NCBI GenBank assembly: GCA_048882505.1
Contig: JBHLRO010000024.1
Span: forward strand, 1 to 32,000
Length of the DNA: 32,000 bases
Direction of reading: 5' to 3'
Source of the DNA: Candidatus Thorarchaeota archaeon
GTDB lineage: Archaea; Asgardarchaeota; Heimdallarchaeia; Hodarchaeales; Hodarchaeaceae
Made by a program: the position numbers and the translations under genes. Below the pieces are notes generated by a model. The model was not told the origin of the DNA, did no database searches, and saw only the letters and a program-made list of their open reading frames with translations. Shown one piece after another: positions 1 through 11,840 of this stretch. How positions within the stretch are numbered: the first letter of the stretch is position 1; each line of letters starts with the position of its first letter.

Positions 1-1977
1 AACTACACGGACATCCCATTGTGTGAGAGGGGCTATAAGACGGGGTTTACCTATATTGTATACCACTTGAAGCTGGTGGAGAGGATAACTTTCGATTGGT
101 CTGTTCAACGGACGTTTGACCTTGAGGGTGGGGATGGAGCCTTTGACGATCGTGGCTTTATCCTCCCCAGACAGGAGTATCCCCAAAGGGCGGTAATTGA
201 ATACAATATTCGAGGAACTGTCTGCCAGTTTTTGTAGGTGCACATTCCATAAAGTAGTATCAACCAAAGATAATGTTTTTTTGGGATAGCTTTTGGGAGC
301 AAAAAGTGGATAAGGACGACCTTTCGAAGCAATGGTTAGTTTTTGTTCCTGTTCCTCATAAGTAAACTCTACACCTTCTTTGATCGACACATAATCTGAT
401 CGTCCTAGGATTACACTAAAAGGATTATCTGGATGAGGAACAAAGGTTTGCTGCTTATCTAGTCTTGGTACCTGTTCCGGTGGCTGGAATAGATATTCTT
501 TTGCTAAGCTGCTTAGATGGGGATCTATCGTATTCAAATCGTAGGTTATAGAATGTTCATCTGATAACTGACAGATATATTTTCCTTCCTGCGCCATTTC
601 TCTGGAAAGAAACGAGTACTGCGTCTTGCATCGACAAGTCACAGTTTTACTGGTCGTGGGTAGTTCGCTCAGAGGAGTGTAACACCGTACACATCTGGCC
701 TCCGTTGAATGGGGAGGAAATAATGCCACATTTTCAGGGATTCTTGGTGCCCAGAATAGACAGGCAACATACCGAGACGAAATTGGTCGAATTCTTTCCT
801 CATATATCGGAATGACGGGAATTGGTATATCTTCATCTCGAGTGATATGGCTTTTCTTCTCCAAATACTCCAGTTTTTTAAAAAAAACACAATCATACTT
901 CGTGCGTTTTGAGAAATACACACAGCTCTGACAGGTAAACTGCAAGTGATTTGCTTGGTGGACTAGTCGGGAATAATGGGATTTACAAGTGGTAGTAAAG
1001 ACGAGTACTCGACGTTTCCGCGGTGCCTTAAACTTGAGCTTTTGAAAACGTAAATTTTGACGAATATAATTAATGGCATCAAAAGCACTCAACTTGATTG
1101 TATTTAGCTCACGTAGATATGGGTTCCTGTCAAGAAAGGTTTTTTCTCGGCTCGTAAGCGGCCTCTCCATCACCCAAGTAACGGTACGCATGTATTGGGA
1201 GACGCTCACTTTGGTTCCTTGGGCTGCTTCTCGGGCACACTCAAGAATGTCAAGATAGAGAAGACCAGGTTGTGAATCAGGATGGAGTTTAGATTTAGAG
1301 ACCAACCACTGATAGATCGTAATTATAACTTCTGCTAGGAGCACCCCACGTTTCATTTCATGAGGACCAGGAAGAGAAAAGGGTTCCTTTGGGGGATCCC
1401 TCAATGATCTATATTTGGAATATTTCTTTACCATTCTCCCAGCTTGAGTATGCTTATACATGGCCTGAAGTTTCTCATTGATTATTGGTTGAATTTCTTC
1501 AAGTAATGTTGATTTATTCTCACTCCACCCAAAAGCCCGAAATAAAACCTCTTGAAAGAGTCGGAGTTGTCGTGCAGCGAACTCCCGTTTCATTGTGTTA
1601 ATATACCATTCACAGCTCAGGACAACTAAGCGTTGGAAATCAGTATAATTGATTTGTTTACTTGTGAATTTTTCCTCAGTTCGTCTTATTCCTGAGCTTA
1701 CTTGAAGTTTAGCGATATGATTAATGTAATCCGCACAATTCAACCCGTGGGCTCGAAAATATTTTCCAAGTATCGAGGTTTGATAGTACTTTCGTTTTAA
1801 CAGGCCGCTCAAACGCAAGATTTTGACGAGTCGCAGGATTTCTGACGGGAGTTCACCTTGGCATTTCAACAAATCCTTGAGATAAGCTTCGAAAACTGGT
1901 TTGGGTTGAATCTGATACCCTATCTCGAAAATGCCCTGGATCAGACCTTCATCTAGTGAAGGAATGGAATCTTGCAT
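1..1977 (-). CDS. Large multidomain protein, partial (659 codons visible, runs off the left edge); putative highly diverged Cas1-family integrase with Zn-binding clusters
   Basis: Hand translation of the minus strand from ATG 1977 (MQDSIPSLDEGLIQ...) gives no stop down to base 1, which is why the ORF track misses it. Motifs: E168 (TLLEEIQPIINEKLQAMY), RSLRDPPKEPF (190-200), LH232...LYLD243ILE246CAR. This matches the Cas1 R..RPP.DP and LH...L.LD..E..R pattern and spacing. Cys clusters C349/352/363/406 and C429/432/448/450. CDS is solid; the Cas1 call is about 0.55. Confidence 0.85.
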   Translation of the reverse strand, partial: MQDSIPSLDEGLIQGIFEIGYQIQPKPVFEAYLKDLLKCQGELPSEILRLVKILRLSGLLKRKYYQTSILGKYFRAHGLNCADYINHIAKLQVSSGIRRTEEKFTSKQINYTDFQRLVVLSCEWYINTMKREFAARQLRLFQEVLFRAFGWSENKSTLLEEIQPIINEKLQAMYKHTQAGRMVKKYSKYRSLRDPPKEPFSLPGPHEMKRGVLLAEVIITIYQWLVSKSKLHPDSQPGLLYLDILECAREAAQGTKVSVSQYMRTVTWVMERPLTSREKTFLDRNPYLRELNTIKLSAFDAINYIRQNLRFQKLKFKAPRKRRVLVFTTTCKSHYSRLVHQANHLQFTCQSCVYFSKRTKYDCVFFKKLEYLEKKSHITRDEDIPIPVIPIYEERIRPISSRYVACLFWAPRIPENVALFPPHSTEARCVRCYTPLSELPTTSKTVTCRCKTQYSFLSREMAQEGKYICQLSDEHSITYDLNTIDPHLSSLAKEYLFQPPEQVPRLDKQQTFVPHPDNPFSVILGRSDYVSIKEGVEFTYEEQEQKLTIASKGRPYPLFAPKSYPKKTLSLVDTTLWNVHLQKLADSSSNIVFNYRPLGILLSGEDKATIVKGSIPTLKVKRPLNRPIESYPLHQLQVVYNIGKPRLIAPLTQWDVRVV

Positions 1978-2253
1978 AAAAGCCCTCAGATACTCCTGTT
2001 TGAATATAAATCATAAATCCAACGCTTTTTTATTATTTTAAAGTATTATAAAGGGATATATGATTTATTCTATATAGAATTAAATTGCTAAAAAAGGTAT
2101 CTATGAATATTAATAAAAAAGTTTTGGTAGATTTTTCTGCATCAACGTTACAGGAGATCCCTGTCCCACTGTGGATACTATTCAATAGATATAATAATCA
2201 CAGCACGACCAAACTAAGAGGACAATCATTAAATTCTTTGGAAGTAATCAAAG
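1978..2253. promoter_or_regulatory. AT-rich divergent promoter region between the Cas1-like gene and the RAMP operon
   Basis: Very AT-rich with TATA-like runs. Inverted pair ATAAATCATA (2006-2015) / TATGATTTAT (2059-2068) and perfect palindrome ATTCTATATAGAAT (2067-2080). Confidence 0.55.
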
Positions 2254-2709
2254 ATGAATTTAAAGTCCAATAAACCGCATCCCGTAAGCTTTGCATCTAT
2301 GACCTGGCAAGAGCTGGCAGTCAAGCAACTATTAGTCAGGGAAGACATCCCGTTTGTCCAGCAGAAAAAAATCACACTGGGGGGCTGTCATATGATCCTG
2401 GATTTTGAGATTGGCGGAGAAATTCTGCTAGAAGTGTCTGCTACGCGCATGCATCGCCACGGAGTGAGTCTGAAACTGAAAGCACTCCAAATTGAAGCCA
2501 AGTATGCCCGGATCAAAAAGGAACATACCTATCAATTGTGGGTATTGTTTGAATCGAGGCGAAGAGTCCATCGGCGACTCTTCAATACGCTTCAACGTCG
2601 AATGCCTTCTGCTGACCTACTACTTACTTCTCGACGGCAGCTCAGAAAAAGCTTGCGATCGGTATTTCTCGCTGAATATCGACAAAAGGGAGTGCCTCAG
2701 CATGTCTAA
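2254..2709 (+). CDS. PD-(D/E)XK restriction-endonuclease-fold protein (DUF559/Vsr-like)
   Basis: WQELAVKQLL..DIPFVQQKKI..ILDFEIGGEILLEVSA fits the E-helix / D-F / E-V pattern of this fold. Stop overlaps the ATG of the next gene (CATGTCTAA). Confidence 0.65.
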   Translation: MNLKSNKPHPVSFASMTWQELAVKQLLVREDIPFVQQKKITLGGCHMILDFEIGGEILLEVSATRMHRHGVSLKLKALQIEAKYARIKKEHTYQLWVLFESRRRVHRRLFNTLQRRMPSADLLLTSRRQLRKSLRSVFLAEYRQKGVPQHV

Positions 2710-3595
2710 GAAATCAGGTCAAAAGCCGTCTCAGAGAGTCAGGTTTCTGAATGGACCACGAAAGATCTTGAAATTCTGGTGCCATACACCCATTGCCAAA
2801 CCCCTCAATGGAGCGGCCCCGAAAAGCAAGAGTTCATACATGTTGAAACTCGTCCCCGTGTCCTACTCATATGAAGGAAATGCCAAGGTAAATGGAAAAA
2901 CCCAGAAGGTCACTAAAACATCCACTGCGGACAGTTATCTCATTAAAGGCCTACGTGGCGCCCTTCGACACAAAGTGATGGCGTTATGTTATGAAGCAGG
3001 GTTAGACGTCTGCCATACTTCCGATAAGCTGGAAGATAAACATCAAAATTCCCTCATCCCACCAGGGTTCCATCCGTTAGGGGAGTGTGCAACAAATGGC
3101 GAGAGCTGCATCATCCACCAAATCTTTGGCTCCATAAGGCACGCTAGTATTATCTCCGTTTCTGCCCCCCCAATCATCCGTTTCATAGAAAAATCCGCTC
3201 AATTGACGGCAACGGTCCAGCAAGTCCATATGGCCACCGAAAACCGTACGTGTATGAGTTTTGATCAAAGACCTATCCAAGACTTTTCGGAATCATACCT
3301 GAGCGGGACCTTTGCGTTTGAAGTCGATGTGACCTTGTGTACCCCAGAACAACTGGGCTTGCTCATCGAAGCCGGGTATCAATTGGAGAAACTTGGTCGA
3401 GGTTATAACTCGGGGTATGGACATCTTTACGTTCGCAAGTTTCAACTTCACAGAAAAACAAAGAAACGAGTGATTAAGACGGTTAAGGAGGAATTTGTGG
3501 TTCATGAACAGGTGTCAGAAGAACCCCTGAACCATGAGGTACCCCAGGCCTTGGGGGCCTGGGCACAGTATCGGGAGGAGCATAGGTGCAATTAA
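2702..3595 (+). CDS. cas7: Cas7-group RAMP (Csm3/Csf2-like backbone subunit), 297 aa
   Basis: IKGLRGALRH (RAMP s.kGalR motif), C..C..CIIHQIFGS (Zn / +FG motif), C-terminal G-rich loop LEKLGRGYNSGYGHL. Start moved from 2492 to ATG 2702, which overlaps the upstream stop by 8 nt. Confidence 0.8.
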   Translation: MSKKSGQKPSQRVRFLNGPRKILKFWCHTPIAKPLNGAAPKSKSSYMLKLVPVSYSYEGNAKVNGKTQKVTKTSTADSYLIKGLRGALRHKVMALCYEAGLDVCHTSDKLEDKHQNSLIPPGFHPLGECATNGESCIIHQIFGSIRHASIISVSAPPIIRFIEKSAQLTATVQQVHMATENRTCMSFDQRPIQDFSESYLSGTFAFEVDVTLCTPEQLGLLIEAGYQLEKLGRGYNSGYGHLYVRKFQLHRKTKKRVIKTVKEEFVVHEQVSEEPLNHEVPQALGAWAQYREEHRCN

Positions 3596-4407
3596 GTCTT
3601 GAAGGCCAGATCTTGACTCCAATCGTAACGAAGAGAACATTCTTTCATCTCATGGGGTGTCAGTTTCGCATCCTACGGCCTCGGCGACGCTATTACACAA
3701 AAATTACGGTGGGTAAACCCATGTACCCCTACTCCTTCATCTGTTACCTTGGAAGCCTCCAAGTTACGTATTCCTGTAAAACCAAAACTCAGGCGAAACG
3801 GAAACTAATTAGCCTCCTCAAGATCGAATCAATCGGGCGTTTCAGTAGCGAAGGAATGGGAAAGATTCAATGGGAAACGGGGCGAATTCGCCAAAATAGG
3901 TGTTTCTTTCAACGGAAAAGATATTCCAAGATTCGGATACGGCAAGGGCTCCCCCAGTACTTACCCCCGCTCGCGCTCAGATTGATCAGGTACGGATTAC
4001 TTCACGATTTTGTCCATACGTCCAGACATCCCTCCAAAATTTATGTTGAACCTCAAGTCAAGGAGGTAGATCTGTTGCGACGACATCATGACCTCACTGA
4101 TGACCCATTTATTCGACGATTCCAGCAATATGATCGGTTGGCATCTCGAATTACCCGTCGGATCAAGTCTCCTCGCCAAAACCGCTACAATTGGCAGTCT
4201 AACCAGACCCTGGACTTTGAAAAACTCGCGACTGAAATTACAGAGGTAGCCAACAAGTCGGTCTGGAAACTCTACCACTACATCTATGAATCCACGGAAC
4301 TGGCCCAACTCACTGAAAGCCTGCAGTTTGGACATACATCCCTGCGCTACCATCTCCTCCTCATAGCTAATTTGATCGTGCGAGACTTTCAACCTCGCGG
4401 GAGTTGA
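3586..4407 (+). CDS. Cas5-like RAMP fused to an HD nuclease domain (Cas10-type circular permutation)
   Basis: GTG start after GGAGG, 10-nt overlap with cas7. N-terminal LEGQILTPIV and G-loop SIGRFSSEGMGKIQW. C-terminal LLH140D141, H167H168, YD183RLAS, then TSLRYH256LLLIANL. Confidence 0.72.
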   Translation: MQLSLEGQILTPIVTKRTFFHLMGCQFRILRPRRRYYTKITVGKPMYPYSFICYLGSLQVTYSCKTKTQAKRKLISLLKIESIGRFSSEGMGKIQWETGRIRQNRCFFQRKRYSKIRIRQGLPQYLPPLALRLIRYGLLHDFVHTSRHPSKIYVEPQVKEVDLLRRHHDLTDDPFIRRFQQYDRLASRITRRIKSPRQNRYNWQSNQTLDFEKLATEITEVANKSVWKLYHYIYESTELAQLTESLQFGHTSLRYHLLLIANLIVRDFQPRGS

Positions 4408-4554: not shown

Positions 4555-4863
4555 ATGGCATCAAATCAACTAGTCCACGACTCGATGGTGACGAAAAGAA
4601 AGGAACGGAGACCGCCCCAACTGCCAGGGGTGCCAGAGAGAGAGAAAAAGGCAATAGTTCATGAGCTGGATCGCAATATTTATGCGATTCTAAGGCGAGA
4701 AGGGCCGTTGACCCGCTCTAATCTGGTATCACTGACAGGGATAGCACGAACAACATTATATGACAGTCTCCTGAGGCTAATTGTGAAAGGCTACGTGACA
4801 CGGTTCTCAGAGGAACGCAAAGAACGTGGGCGTCCGAAAGTCTTCTTTCAAGCAACGGGATAG
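4555..4863 (+). CDS. Winged helix-turn-helix (TrmB-like) DNA-binding protein
   Basis: LDRNIYAILRREGPLTRSNLVSLTGIARTTLYDSLLRLIVKGYV...RGRPKVFF: classic archaeal wHTH with RGRP wing. Confidence 0.85.
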   Translation: MASNQLVHDSMVTKRKERRPPQLPGVPEREKKAIVHELDRNIYAILRREGPLTRSNLVSLTGIARTTLYDSLLRLIVKGYVTRFSEERKERGRPKVFFQATG

Positions 4864-5838: not shown

Positions 5839-7380
5839 GTGGTGAAAACCCGTGAATCCATTAAGAAGTCGATTTCAACAATCTTACAGCAGCTTTCTCT
5901 TCGAACCAGCGCCTATCCACCACCTGAACAGAAAAGGTTGGATGAATTACTAGAACTAATCGGTCATTACGAAGAGGCGGACTTTAGTAGAAATAAATTA
6001 GTATTACGGTTTGTTAAATATAGTGAGGGGACTTTTAAAGATGAAGAGTATCTTGGGCTTCCATTCTTATGGTTTAGTGGTACCTACTCTCAAAATGCAA
6101 AAGTGTTACTAGAACATTCCAAGTTTCATGCAATATCGTTCTATGAATTCTTAGCAAAGCATTTGCGGGGGATATTTCGTCTAGTAAACCGTTTAGAACC
6201 CTTATCTTCGATTTTATGGGAAGATTTACAATACGAAGCCAATAAATTACTCCAATATCTAACGAAAAGAGATATAGAGACTTTAAAGGTGGAATTTCGA
6301 CTTTTAAAAGAAAAAGGAGTAATTACACTAAATACACGCCAGCAAAGAGAATATATTGGGGAATATATCGAGTTTTTCAAGGACGAGACACCTTTTGTTG
6401 AGCTGAAACGTTTATTTTCTGTCGTAAACGGAAAATGGATGCTCCAATTCTTCTCCCCTGCTTTTGATCTAAGTCGTGTACTATTTCAATTCAAGATTCT
6501 CGATTCAATTCCTTTGAGTGATATAATAGACTTTTCAAATCGTAAAAACTCCACATTGACTATAAGCGATATCTACAACACGCGCGAAGATCCAAACCGA
6601 TATCTAGGATTTTTCTTTGTTCCAATTAATTGTGTTTCTGACCTTAAGACATATCTTCAGAAAATTCAGAAGAGTGGGCATATAATACTGGAAAAATATT
6701 CTTCAGTAACCGATGTTCGGAAGAATATTTCGCTACGACTTTATCAACCAGGAAGAGGCTGGCAAAACACCAGTACAACTTACCTATCTAAGTTAAAACG
6801 AATTATATTATCAATTGGACCTGACGAGCTAGAACAACAACCAAGTAGTTATCAAGATGACCTTTATATCCCTAATGCAATGAACAAAAGATGGAGCTAT
6901 CGTGATCATCCTCTTCCTCATCGATTGATAAAGTTGGTCTGTAAAATGGCAAAGGAGTTCTCCTTCATGGATTTTCCCATTGACTCTGATAGGTTAAATA
7001 AGCCGAACTCTCTCAGTATCGATCAGATCGGGCTCCTGAAACAATTATATTACAACAAAGTTGTGTATCCAGTTTTTATACCTTGGCAAATTATCGATGA
7101 ATTCTCGCTAGACAATTTCTGTGTATATATCCAGAAAATCCCATTTTCTAAGCTGGTAGAATTAATAAAAATTATCCCATTCAGTGAAGTATTTTCCACC
7201 GAAGAGTTTTTCTGCTTGTTTGGTAGATTAACACCACGACTAGTTAATTGGATTCGCTCAGATTTAGGTTGGAATGTCTATATGATCAGTAGAACACATA
7301 AAAAAGCTGCGCAGTTAAATTTTGCCTGGTTTAACAAAAGATCATTGACATGGGCGGTTCCAGAAGTTCTGGAATCTTAA
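5839..7380 (+). CDS. Hypothetical protein (513 aa), possibly with duplicated wHTH plus ferredoxin-like (Lrp/AsnC-like) halves
   Basis: Long ORF, GTG start within GAGGTG. The fold guess is weak and comes from two similar hydrophobic strand patterns (FFSPAFDLSRVLFQFKI; VFIPWQIIDEFSLDNFCVYI). Confidence 0.8.
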   Translation: MVKTRESIKKSISTILQQLSLRTSAYPPPEQKRLDELLELIGHYEEADFSRNKLVLRFVKYSEGTFKDEEYLGLPFLWFSGTYSQNAKVLLEHSKFHAISFYEFLAKHLRGIFRLVNRLEPLSSILWEDLQYEANKLLQYLTKRDIETLKVEFRLLKEKGVITLNTRQQREYIGEYIEFFKDETPFVELKRLFSVVNGKWMLQFFSPAFDLSRVLFQFKILDSIPLSDIIDFSNRKNSTLTISDIYNTREDPNRYLGFFFVPINCVSDLKTYLQKIQKSGHIILEKYSSVTDVRKNISLRLYQPGRGWQNTSTTYLSKLKRIILSIGPDELEQQPSSYQDDLYIPNAMNKRWSYRDHPLPHRLIKLVCKMAKEFSFMDFPIDSDRLNKPNSLSIDQIGLLKQLYYNKVVYPVFIPWQIIDEFSLDNFCVYIQKIPFSKLVELIKIIPFSEVFSTEEFFCLFGRLTPRLVNWIRSDLGWNVYMISRTHKKAAQLNFAWFNKRSLTWAVPEVLES

Positions 7381-8415
7381 GGAAAAAATAAAAGGGGAAA
7401 TTAGCACTAATTCCTTTCACAATCCGCCAGTTGGACCATCATTTGGAGGCATCGTTTTTCACCTACAATTGAGGATGACAGGGCTTTTAATAGTCCCTAA
7501 GTTTGGAAATGCAGAGTCATTTTGTGTCATTTTCGGTTCTCTCTCCTTCTGATAAGAATAACAACAATCAAAGCCAATTAGAAAAGGATTTGAGTAATGA
7601 ATAGGAATATAAACGTAGAATTCGACAGATAGTCTTCTACAACTACCCTTAAAATCCCCAACTTTCTTGGCATGATTGTAAGAGTCTGATCTGGTATCCT
7701 CCAAGCATCCTCTCTGATTGAATCAGGAAGGGGTCTCAATGGCGGCCCTTAATCACCAGGATTTAACTTCTCCCCCAGAACAACCAACTGGACAGTAAAG
7801 GACAGTCAGGAATACCCCTCCTGATTCTTTTTTTTTATAATAAGTTATTGATCCATAATTTGACCATGCTTTTATAAATACCTTTCACTAGCATATAAAC
7901 TTCTCTATTCCTACCTACTGCATTAGATTACTTCATAATCTCCTTTTCTGATAGATCAGTTTTTTCAGGAATCATTTTAATTGATTTCTTCAAGGTTTTT
8001 TGAATATTAAGCATACTAGCGACAAAATTGGGATGTCTGTTCTTACTTTAGTATATCATTCCAAATCTAGGCATTCAATGGCTTCTTGATAAACACAGTC
8101 CAAACCGTATCCAGAATTCAGTTTGTCATGAAGACAAAGATATGTAACTGAATCATTGGATGAAATAAAATGAAATGCTGATGGGGGAAAACATAATAAT
8201 ATTTGGGAAAAGGCTTAGATACTGTTATATTTATGGTAGGATAAGCCAGAGAATTTATAGAAAGCTGTTTACACTACCTCGATGAAAAAATCTTGAATTA
8301 AAGGCTTTTGAATTTTTATCATTCTCAAGATTTATGAAAAAAAAGCAGTTCATTCCCAAAGTTTCAGAAGCACATTCTGAACGTTACTGAAAAAAATCAA
8401 ACCCCATAACTTGAA
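7381..8415. other. Candidate replication origin (oriC) region
   Basis: About 1 kb without a convincing ORF, upstream of a co-oriented DUF6788-cdc6 pair next to DP1. AT-rich from ~7830 to 8400. G-string-containing inverted elements at 7713-7733, 7772-7793 and 7815-7827. Confidence 0.4.
7720..7836. repeat. 14-bp inverted repeat pair (one bulge) enclosing 79 bp, followed by a 9-T run
   Basis: GAATCAGGA(A)GGGGT at 7720-7734 versus ACCCCTCCTGATTC at 7814-7827; T run at 7828-7836. Confidence 0.8.
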
Positions 8416-8958: not shown

Positions 8959-10215
8959 ATGGCACAATTAGACCGCACGTCAGGGGATAGAAATCGTGAA
9001 GAACCGGAGGTCACGTTAGACGATATTTTTGAAGGATATTTGAAGCAACCCAAGCTGTTCACCAACCGCGATGCGCTTGAGAGTTCGTTTGTCCCAGAAA
9101 ACTTACCCCACCGGACTGAACAAATCAAACAGCTCGGATATATCCTAGCATCGGTGCTTCGTGGGGCCAAACCGAGCAATATCCTGTGTTTTGGGAAAAC
9201 TGGCACAGGGAAAACGGCCGTCTCTAAATATGTCTTGAATAGTTTGGGGAAAAAGGCACCACAGCATGGCCTAAGAATTGAAGTAGCATATATGAACTGT
9301 AATTCCGTTGACACTAATTATCGGGTTTTCGCGGACTTATGCAGTTCCTTGGGGGTTGAGGTGCCATTTACTGGGCTTGCCACGGATGAAGTATTTACAC
9401 GGTTCAAACGGGGTTTAGATCAGCGGCATTCATTGTTTATTGTCGTTCTTGACGAAATTGATTCGTTGGTGAAAAAATCAGGGAATGAAACCCTTTACAA
9501 TCTAACCCGTATTAATACTGATCTCACCAGAGCCAAAGTGAGTCTAATTGGGATCTCGAATGACCTGAAGTTTAAAGAATACCTGGATCCTAGGGTACTT
9601 TCCTCGTTGTCGGAGGAGGAGATTGTTTTCAAACCTTATGAGGCACCTGAAATTATGGATATTCTGATCGACCGTGCAAAGTTGGCGTTCAAAGAAAATG
9701 TCCTATTGGAGGGGGTCCTCAATATGATTGCCGCGATCGCTGCCCAGGAACACGGTGACGCACGTCGGGCTATTGATCTGTTACGAGTATCTGCAGAAAC
9801 CGCGGAACGGGAAGGCAGTGAACAAATCCTTCAAAGACATGTCAAGATCGCCCAGGGTGCCATAGAGAGGAACACAATCACGGAAGTGTGTGCGTCTCTG
9901 CCACTCCAATCTAAGATAGTTATCTCTTCAATTTATCTCTTGGAGAGCACCCAGGAGACGTCTCAAACGGTGTCCACTGGTGATGTTTATGACGAATATG
10001 TCCGTTTGTGTCGAGAAACGGGGATGGATTCCCTAACACAACGTCGGGTAGGGGATCTCATTAATGAGCTTGACGCCCTAGGCATAATTAGTGCCCGAGT
10101 CGTTTCACGAGGACGTCATGGACGGACAAAAGAGATACGTATATCAGTACCCCGCCCGTTGGTGGCAAAAATATTGCGAGAAGACAAAATCATTGGAAAA
10201 AGGATAACCAACTAG
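8959..10215 (+). CDS. cdc6: Orc1/Cdc6 replication initiator
   Basis: F+PENLPHRTEQI, Walker A GKTGTGKT, Walker B VVLDEID, sensor GDARRAIDLLR, C-terminal wHTH with SRGRHGRTKEI. Confidence 0.97.
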   Translation: MAQLDRTSGDRNREEPEVTLDDIFEGYLKQPKLFTNRDALESSFVPENLPHRTEQIKQLGYILASVLRGAKPSNILCFGKTGTGKTAVSKYVLNSLGKKAPQHGLRIEVAYMNCNSVDTNYRVFADLCSSLGVEVPFTGLATDEVFTRFKRGLDQRHSLFIVVLDEIDSLVKKSGNETLYNLTRINTDLTRAKVSLIGISNDLKFKEYLDPRVLSSLSEEEIVFKPYEAPEIMDILIDRAKLAFKENVLLEGVLNMIAAIAAQEHGDARRAIDLLRVSAETAEREGSEQILQRHVKIAQGAIERNTITEVCASLPLQSKIVISSIYLLESTQETSQTVSTGDVYDEYVRLCRETGMDSLTQRRVGDLINELDALGIISARVVSRGRHGRTKEIRISVPRPLVAKILREDKIIGKRITN

Positions 10216-10268: not shown

Positions 10269-11840
10269 TTAGGAGGGAATTATACGCATTTTTCTAAGAT
10301 CGATCATGGTAATTTGACCAGTTTGGGTGTCTAAAATATGGACAACCCCTACTGATGTTTTCTGTGGGGTTTTCAAATGGTCTGGGCCCTTACCTTGAAA
10401 TGTACCACAAGCGATTATTTTGACTCCTTTGTACTCGGCCATTGATGCTTGGTGGCTGTGCCCGACCACGAGTATTTCTGGGACCCGATCAATGACAAGA
10501 TAGTCCCGTTTTGCAGGTACAAGCGGAATAGTGACTCCATACTCCGGAGCCAAATGCCGATATTCTAATAATTGTTGAATGCTCGAAATAGGATTGATCG
10601 GATCGAGTTGTTCAAGCCCTTGTCCATGGTAGACTAGGAGGTTCAGACCATCGATTATCACGCGAAGCGGGTTACCATGAGTGAGTACGTTCGGAAGGGA
10701 AAAAATCGAATTTCCTACTTCTCGATCAATAGCAGGCTGTGGTAAGGCCATTTGGGTGGCATCATGCTCTCCTGGGATTACTATTATCTGAATGTAAGAA
10801 GGAATTTTAGAGAATAGAGCTGATAAGCCATCATATTGAGCTTGAAGGGAAGATACACTCAAATTGGCTTGCTGGTCAGGAAATTGCCCAACTCCGTCAC
10901 AAAGATCCCCCGCAACAATAACAACTTTGATATCCTGGGCTATTGCAACCAGATCGGGGGGTAGGTCATCCAACTGAACCAATTTTACTAAGTTGGCAAA
11001 AGCCCGTGTGGCGAAAGATTTGGCCCCATAGTGAATATCTGCAAGAAACAAGATTTTTCCAGAACGGGGATTCTGTTGAAATCGGATAGGAGTGAGACCA
11101 GGCCGAATCACATCTTTTCCCCAAAAGGCAGTAATAGCTCCCTCCTCATACTTCTTGGGTAGATCTCCCGCAACCCCGATCACGGTATCACGGAGAATTT
11201 CGTGATACTCTGGAAAAGATGTACTCTCTTGAACCATGACACATCGAGTAAGTATTTCATCAGTAGGATCTTCTAACTGGATAACAAACTTACCCGTATG
11301 TAATACCCCCGTATCTTGCACCATCCCAATCAAGATTCCGCTTTTGTCAAGAGGAACTTCCTGTATCGTCAGATTTCGGCCAAGAATCCGTCCTTGATCT
11401 GTTAGTTGATCCCTTATGATTCTTGAGAGTCGCTGAAACCTGTCAAGAAACAAATTCCGAAACGTGTCAACGTCGACGGGATCAGAAAGGGAAGTCGGGA
11501 TATCGAGATCAATAACAATTTCGGGTAGAGAGGGGGGTTTCTTTGGAGCAGAGAGTTGAGGTGTTTGTGTTGTTGAAATCTGGCCAGAATTAGTGGTTGA
11601 TAAGACTTGCTCTGTAGAAGCTATTTCACGATCTTTTGATATCTCAGAATTGTGTTTAGTTGTCGCCAAGACTTCCTGAATGACAGGGACGGTTACAACA
11701 GGGATTTCTTGAGGTAATTGGGAAACCAGAGTCTTTATTTGGCTTTTGGAGAGGGAACTGTTTCTTAGATAATCGAGAACCTCGCCTGTGACATTGAACC
11801 TGTGTTTCAAGAACAGAGCGATTAGTTCACCTCGATCCAT
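10269..11840 (-). CDS. polB: DNA polymerase D small subunit DP1 (OB fold plus calcineurin-like phosphoesterase), diverged
   Basis: F+DRF.RL motif; OB fold LIGMVQD..IQLEDPT; motifs DIHYG, AGDLCDGVG, PGEHD, YHG, GHSH; HLAP.YG. Symbol is the archaeal DP1 (polD1) usage. Confidence 0.88.
   Translation of the reverse strand: MDRGELIALFLKHRFNVTGEVLDYLRNSSLSKSQIKTLVSQLPQEIPVVTVPVIQEVLATTKHNSEISKDREIASTEQVLSTTNSGQISTTQTPQLSAPKKPPSLPEIVIDLDIPTSLSDPVDVDTFRNLFLDRFQRLSRIIRDQLTDQGRILGRNLTIQEVPLDKSGILIGMVQDTGVLHTGKFVIQLEDPTDEILTRCVMVQESTSFPEYHEILRDTVIGVAGDLPKKYEEGAITAFWGKDVIRPGLTPIRFQQNPRSGKILFLADIHYGAKSFATRAFANLVKLVQLDDLPPDLVAIAQDIKVVIVAGDLCDGVGQFPDQQANLSVSSLQAQYDGLSALFSKIPSYIQIIVIPGEHDATQMALPQPAIDREVGNSIFSLPNVLTHGNPLRVIIDGLNLLVYHGQGLEQLDPINPISSIQQLLEYRHLAPEYGVTIPLVPAKRDYLVIDRVPEILVVGHSHQASMAEYKGVKIIACGTFQGKGPDHLKTPQKTSVGVVHILDTQTGQITMIDLRKMRIIPS

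Follow-up and report, generated by a model that had tools for sequence, protein, structure and literature searches.

A truncated gene for a predicted giant Cas1-family protein beside a divergent ARAMP-like cassette in an Asgard archaeon

Cas1 is the enzyme that writes CRISPR immune memory and moves casposons. Here we describe the left end of a 32-kb stretch of DNA (hereafter the window; positions 1 to 32,000 of contig JBHLRO010000024.1, referred to as C24) from the archaeal genome of a Candidatus Thorarchaeota archaeon (4.3 Mb in 83 contigs), where window position 1 is likewise contig position 1. At this edge the minus strand carries an open reading frame (ORF) that we consider likely to represent the 5′ two thirds of the gene for a giant Cas1-family integrase of approximately 985 amino acids (aa), which has a normal domain order and is associated with an ARAMP (Asgard RAMP) system. 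Systems of this kind were reportedly described by Makarova, Wolf, Shmakov, Liu, Li and Koonin in 2020 (CRISPR J 3:156).

The predicted giant Cas1-family protein at the contig edge

The minus-strand frame between positions 1 and 1977 is free of stop codons over 659 codons as far as the contig edge. An earlier reading of the same DNA from its letters (the first-pass annotation) had reported an ORF of more than 659 aa at this place, and this ORF is real, being a single frame that is open at position 1. Full-length homologues comprise 973-1012 aa, in some cases 1282-1433 aa, and the alignment with them spans all 659 residues of the window protein. The family is scarce: among 1.84 billion cluster representatives, which were scanned exhaustively with HMMER, no more than 31 members were found. 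The predicted order of its domains, from the N- to the C-terminus, is a winged helix, an unrecognised helical region, a module with eight cysteines (Cys8), an extra beta module, the beta N-domain of Cas1 and the helical catalytic domain. In the window copy this architecture breaks off within the last strand of the Cas1 N-domain, and the catalytic domain lies off the contig. Within the part that is covered, the window copy keeps the residues that are invariant in the family, including all eight cysteines and the block YPLHQLQ..VYN.GKPRL.

The assignment to Cas1 comes from the full-length relatives (~985 aa), whose C-terminal 390 aa are predicted to adopt an ordinary Cas1 fold with the beta domain followed by the helical domain. 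An AlphaFold (AF2) model of residues 530 to 983 of the paralogue P0002 (P0002:530-983) was obtained with a predicted local distance difference test score (pLDDT) of 91.3, and all of its 50 best Foldseek matches in the PDB were Cas1 or casposase, the best with an E-value of 1.2e-9. VIA-align superimposed the same model on A. fulgidus Cas1 (4n06_A) with a Z-score of 21.9 over 257 aa at 2.8 A, and on casposase 6opm_B with a Z-score of 21.1. Moreover, the sole PDB match of a profile built from 26 C-terminal sequences was the M. mazei casposase 6OPM, with a marginal E-value of 0.092 over the H...DLxE motif. Residues E758, H847, D860, E862 and E863 of P0002 are kept in 22-24 of the 26 family sequences, and E758, H847 and E863, which align with the casposase triad E162/H232/E247 (PMC6977970), form the conserved E/H/E triad of the family. 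As a separate observation, the 257-aa representative P0017 carries Asp, Ser and Lys in place of the catalytic His, Asp and Glu and is likely an inactivated copy.

The whole-chain alignments also define where the Cas1 part of the window protein begins. They start at approximately model residue 62, which maps to about residue 598 of the window protein, and therefore the second of two beta segments near the contig edge corresponds to the genuine N-terminal domain of Cas1. The first-pass annotation had taken both segments for domains of this kind. Both do exist; however, the first one, an extra beta-rich module, is not covered by any of the Cas1 structural alignments, which begin at model residue 61-69 or later. 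Comparison by hhalign revealed no profile similarity of the extra module to the true Cas1 N-domain, and the likeness of the two segments to each other that had been claimed was not detectable (hhalign probability 0.6%).

The approximately 590 aa ahead of the Cas1 domain are a family-specific extension, which comprises a winged helix, eight invariant cysteines and the extra beta module. The model of residues 1-535 was built with 16 homologues and reached a pLDDT of 77.4. Its first domain is predicted to be a winged helix, a call at the level of the fold given the modest Z-scores (Table 1); beyond this domain, no meaningful match was found in Foldseek-PDB, AFDB clusters or Atlas. The cysteine clusters noted in the first-pass annotation at nucleotides 628-933 were borne out. 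Residues C349, C352, C363, C406, C429, C432, C448 and C450 are all present, and each is invariant in 13-14 of the 16 homologues, the remainder being gaps, so that every homologue covering them retains them. Together with weak Pfam zinc-ribbon matches in homologues, this pattern suggests two presumed metal sites, the second of which would be zinc-ribbon-like.

The missing 3′ part of the gene may be represented elsewhere in the assembly. Three pieces of the family are found in this genome, namely a complete 983-aa paralogue on contig C16, the window piece on C24, and a 90-aa Cas1 C-terminal end on C82. The latter lies at the right-hand end of its contig (2.7 kb), is oriented to continue the window gene, and has an open frame with a normal stop at its end. 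Probably, C82, an unassembled gap of about 230 codons and C24 together make up one gene. We infer this join, since the two contig ends do not overlap and we found no further assembly: no 21-mer is common to the ends of C24 and C82, neither of them shares one with the end of another contig, no further pieces of the gene are present in its own genome, and an exact 40-nucleotide search of the metagenome collection for the gene gave no match. Directly downstream of the C-terminal fragment, a helicase-like ORF occupies positions 1-1212 of the minus strand of C82; it exceeds 404 aa, contains a Walker A-like GGGKT motif and runs off the opposite end of the contig.

The neighbouring cassette, its surroundings and the distribution of the family

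The giant cas1 gene lies head to head with a gene cassette (Table 1), and the intergenic region between them presumably holds the promoters of both. Employing tblastn, we found the same layout at eight other loci in metagenome-assembled genomes (MAGs) of Hodarchaeota and Heimdallarchaeota, where genes for a PD-(D/E)xK-like protein, a 239-aa protein, a RAMP protein and an HD protein diverge from the cas1 gene. The window genes are tightly packed, with the ORF for the 151-aa protein overlapping the start of the RAMP gene by 8 nucleotides and the RAMP gene overlapping the next gene by 10 nucleotides.

Table 1. Features at the left end of the window; coordinates are window positions.
Feature	Coordinates	Strand	Evidence or remark
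Giant Cas1-family ORF, N-terminal 659 aa	1..1977	-	ATG at 1977; 3′ end cut by contig start
Canonical Cas1 N-terminal beta domain, aa ~592-659	1..204	-	VIA whole-chain alignments, e.g. 2yzs_B 3-316 to model 62-447; last strand cut by contig end
Extra beta-rich module, aa ~525-591	205..405	-	Five strands and a helix in the P0002:530-983 model
Cys8 region, aa 349-450	628..933	-	CxxC-x10-C-x42-C, then CxxC-x15-CxC
Predicted winged-helix domain, aa 3-80	1738..1971	-	AF2 model; VIA-wide Z up to 7.2, 58-70 aa, root mean square deviation 2.0-2.3 A
Divergent intergenic region, 276 bp, between the Cas1 gene and the cassette	1978..2253	.	ORF layout
151-aa PD-(D/E)xK-like protein	2254..2709	+	Orthologues beside every family member examined
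Cas7/Csm3-like RAMP, 297 aa	2702..3595	+	ATG at 2702; PADLOC Csm3 E 9.8e-4; Pfam RAMPs E 0.014
273-aa protein, possible Cas5-like RAMP N-half and HD-like C-half	3586..4407	+	HD-like motifs readable in translation
102-aa winged-helix (TrmB/HTH_24) regulator	4555..4863	+	Pfam TrmB E 5.4e-7

Of all cassette proteins, the 151-aa protein accompanies the giant Cas1 most constantly. Its invariant residues are E20, D50, E60, K76, E81 and K83, and its Atlas model yielded template modelling (TM) scores of 0.6-0.66 to PDDEXK_11, DpnII and endonuclease I folds, which we regard as a lead only; a search of PDB sequences with its profile gave chance-level matches only. The locus of the C16 paralogue lacks RAMP and HD genes, and the 151-aa domain is found there at the N-terminal end of a larger protein (1104 aa). 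When the Cas1 domain P0006:540-993 and the neighbouring 150-aa protein were submitted to complex prediction, the score was 0.00 against a mark of 0.32, which counts neither for nor against binding.

As to the remaining cassette genes, the orthologue of the RAMP protein at locus L008 (48% identical) scored 27.9 bits with Pfam RAMPs, above the cut-off of 22.1, and the L008 orthologue of the 273-aa protein matched Pfam HD with an E-value of 0.0016, below the cut-off. For the Cas5-like half of the 273-aa protein, weak Atlas leads alone point to RAMP, Csf3, Csm4 and Cas6. The TrmB-type regulator is confined to the window locus, as no orthologue was found at the other cassette loci. Some of these other loci share about 60-100 nucleotides beyond the stop codon of the HD gene in blastn comparisons, and a blastn search for a conserved non-coding element 3′ of this gene matched the window in coding sequence only.

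No CRISPR array or tandem repeats were found in the 32-kb window, and Rfam and tRNA scans of it gave no match. Likewise, there is no Cas2 near the giant Cas1; the only Pfam Cas1 and Cas2 matches of the genome lie together on C55. The eight other cassette loci, too, are free of arrays and of Cas2 in their vicinity. Further to the right, the window contains archaeal housekeeping genes, including those for Cdc6, the PolD small subunit (10269-11840), AglB and Rpb2. Just upstream of the Cdc6/Orc1 gene (8959-10215) there is a 513-aa ORF without a family match (5839-7380), located in a stretch of markedly reduced GC content (6001-8000; 0.355-0.364 compared to 0.41-0.48 nearby). An origin-proximal region or DNA of foreign source could account for this stretch.

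The family is confined to a small number of Asgard lineages, comprising Hodarchaeota MAGs (JAEOT accession series) and Heimdallarchaeota including B3_Heim. Its occurrence is patchy: it is present in seven of the 21 sampled genomes of the genus, this one counted, and outside the family to which the genus belongs in four genomes from three of the 29 other families sampled. Genomes carry two to four copies, which share just 33-42% identity within a genome; the window protein and the C16 paralogue are 35-39% identical, depending on the aligner. In Hodarchaeota YT5_056 (G262; loci L015, L016 and L017), three to four giant-Cas1 copies with 33-42% mutual identity are found, so that deep paralogous lineages coexist in one genome. 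Cassette genes accompany the copies at L015 and L017, and L016 is too short to show any.

Giant Cas1 proteins come in several architectures. A long form (P0011-P0014, 1282-1433 aa, e.g. L009:8001-12254) has an extra ~270-470 aa before the shared architecture, and at L009 the 3′ end of the cas1 gene directly adjoins a gene for a DDE_5 transposase. More distant proteins (P0022, P0024-P0027 and P0030-P0032; 554-1473 aa) have the Cas1-like domain and the triad in common, and their N-terminal regions are long and unrelated. In two NCBI MAGs, the region downstream of the giant cas1 gene (L006/L007, 9475-16218) encodes an AAA_5 protein with a weak phage-integrase match, a KAP/NACHT-like NTPase and a NERD/UvrD_C protein, resembling a defence island or mobile element.

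Elsewhere in the genome under study, a second RAMP and HD module is located at C2:387419-388777 with neither a cas1 nor a 151-aa gene adjoining it, and the RAMP match there covers residues ~103-244 only. Isolated HD-like fragments are located at C2:70427-70738 and C2:97624-97911. In this genome, ARAMP pieces seem to be undergoing decay and dispersal.

Weighing of the assignment and of alternative explanations

Several points weigh against the assignment of the window ORF to a giant Cas1 of an ARAMP system. First, no sequence library calls the protein Cas1, and membership consequently depends on predicted fold and motifs. The window protein and three full-length homologues (P0001-P0004) had no usable match in Pfam, NCBIfam or PADLOC, with none at E ≤ 10, and a PDB sequence search with the same four proteins returned nothing usable. 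A search of the genome with PF01867 (Cas_Cas1) detected the canonical gene on C55 only and did not pick up the giant Cas1, and Pfam gave stray helix-turn-helix (HTH) and zinc-ribbon hints only for 15 longer or more distant relatives and for the C16 neighbour protein P0005. Second, with its catalytic domain off the contig, the window copy can only be presumed to have an intact triad, and what connects C24 with C82 is compatible position and orientation alone. Third, the functional tie of Cas1 to the RAMP and HD genes is read from gene order alone, and we likewise infer that the giant family is the ARAMP Cas1 of Makarova et al. 2020. Finally, no other family member is as divergent as the window copy, which shares at most 35% identity with any of them, and the window cassette is devoid of the ~239-aa gene that is present between the nuclease-like and the RAMP gene at all eight other loci. 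On these two grounds the window copy could be decaying.

Among the alternatives, we first considered a new casposon-like element for which the giant Cas1 would serve as transposase and in which the RAMP, HD and PD-(D/E)xK genes would travel as cargo or accessory genes. A casposase-like fold and action independent of Cas2 would suit such an element, as would the presence of two to four copies in one genome, the patchy spread described above, and the differing housekeeping surroundings of the loci (Rpb4/L21e, L7Ae/S28e, and Cdc6 in the window). Moreover, some Asgard Cas1 homologues have been described as ‘possibly associated with novel MGE’ (mobile genetic elements; PMC8730458). However, within 700 bp of the module ends at four loci the best terminal inverted or direct repeats were not above shuffled controls, and target duplications did not emerge either, though the boundaries could lie further out. 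In addition, no family B DNA polymerase is encoded among the called neighbours in the window or at the other examined cassette loci; the PolD small subunit in the window is a host gene. The low identity of copies within a genome indicates ancient paralogues and not products of recent transposition, and despite deep divergence the five-gene set has remained together, a behaviour more in keeping with a functional system than with variable cargo. Hence, we regard a casposon-like transposase as possible but unlikely.

The window copy could also be a decaying remnant, that is, a pseudogene or truncated gene, now without function, in an ARAMP locus undergoing degeneration. Besides the divergence of this copy and the missing 239-aa gene, the Cas1-less partial module and the isolated HD-like fragments on C2 in the same genome point in this direction, as does the replacement of the catalytic residues in P0017. 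In contrast, the frame is open over 659 codons to the contig edge, the family-invariant residues including the eight cysteines and the conserved block are kept, the fragment on C82 is open and ends at a normal stop, and the RAMP and HD genes are full length. Taken together, these results render a remnant improbable.

The first-pass annotation had proposed a circularly permuted Cas1, in which residues ~130-290 would form the catalytic helical domain, with zinc clusters and two beta domains after it, or alternatively a single-chain pseudo-dimer. The residues it named, E168, R190, R193, D194, P195, P196, H232, D243, E246 and R249, are all present at these positions, and the arithmetic of their Cas1-like spacing is correct; moreover, the C-terminal end of the window protein does hold a true Cas1 N-domain. 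However, a similar pattern, E-x(55-75)-H-x(9-12)-[DE]-xx-[DE], was obtained in 274 of 1000 shuffles (27%) of the same protein. Conservation of E168, H232 and E246 in homologues had been named as one point on which the proposal would stand or fall, and the permuted reading fails because they are not conserved: among the 16 homologues E168 is found in seven and E246 in three, H232 occurs in the window protein alone (1/16), and D243 is found in nine. In addition, although missing matches are no proof for a model as long and multi-domain as that of residues 1-535, it had no Cas1 among its matches in four structure libraries (Foldseek-PDB, AFDB clusters, VIA-wide and Atlas), whereas for the C-terminal model Cas1 or casposase filled all 50 top rows. 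An hhalign comparison of the N-terminal alignment with the family Cas1-domain (C-terminal) alignment produced trivial overlap only and thus no similarity to the catalytic domain. In full-length relatives the real catalytic domain comes after the beta domain. As to the pseudo-dimer, a helical domain does lie beyond the window edge, as had been anticipated, but it is the sole helical domain and not a second one. The permuted appearance is an artefact: residue spacing that arose by chance coincided with the contig break. We attach next to no probability to the proposal.

Proposed role and comparison with known systems

Returning to the giant Cas1 of normal domain order, its way of working can be outlined as follows. 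The protein would act without Cas2, employing the chemistry of casposases and Cas1, i.e. attack of a 3′-OH on target DNA (transesterification). Recognition of the DNA site would be supplied by the N-terminal winged helix and the Cys8/zinc modules, similar to the HTH of casposase, on which casposase activity depends (PMC6977970). The putative small PD-(D/E)xK nuclease would trim DNA ends in a Cas4-like manner, and both proteins would constitute the DNA-handling arm of an ARAMP system that has no array. Going further, the giant Cas1 and its PD-(D/E)xK partner might constitute a self-contained integration machine, which can dispense with both Cas2 and an array, picks its target with its own winged-helix and zinc modules and either serves the ARAMP effector by recording or inserting DNA at a non-repeat site or mobilises the whole defence cassette. 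We put this forward as a speculation whose chances are rather poor; if true, such a machine would stand, as an evolutionary intermediate, between casposases and the adaptation modules of CRISPR. ARAMP systems retain a Cas1 although they lack an array into which it could write, and their mechanism has been called enigmatic in reviews. The domain map of one rare and narrowly distributed giant Cas1 family provides a defined target for biochemistry.

Compared with known systems, the giant Cas1 has the two-domain Cas1 fold and the aligned E/H/E triad in common with the M. mazei casposase (6OPM), which works without Cas2, as the giant Cas1 would, and likewise carries a DNA-binding appendage of its own. 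They differ in size and layout, as the casposase comprises ~410 aa with a C-terminal HTH, whereas the giant Cas1 has its ~590-aa extension at the N-terminus and RAMP and HD genes as neighbours.

With the Cas1 of CRISPR adaptation (A. fulgidus, 4N06) it shares the fold and the catalytic residues, and the putative small PD-(D/E)xK nuclease encoded beside it is reminiscent of Cas4 beside Cas1 in Cas4-Cas1 modules. In contrast to this Cas1, the giant protein is not seen by Pfam Cas_Cas1, is three times larger, and has no Cas2, array or leader, and the canonical cas1-cas2 pair of the genome is located elsewhere, on C55.

The closest correspondence is with ARAMP itself, which has been described as array-less and type III-derived with HNH or PD-(D/E)xK nucleases (PMC12669027); the ARAMP systems of Asgard archaea encode ‘a distinct form of Cas1’ (PMC8730458, PMC12669027). 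The locus described here has an Asgard host, a Cas7-like RAMP gene, a possible Cas5-like/HD gene and a gene for a putative PD-(D/E)xK-type nuclease, with a highly diverged Cas1 encoded alongside and neither array nor Cas2 nearby. What sets it apart are the missing 239-aa gene and the low identity to other members. As host, gene set and missing array all fit, we file the locus as a divergent member of ARAMP and not as a new kind of system: a catalogued Asgard system is represented here by a truncated and unusually divergent copy of its rare and uncharacterised giant Cas1.

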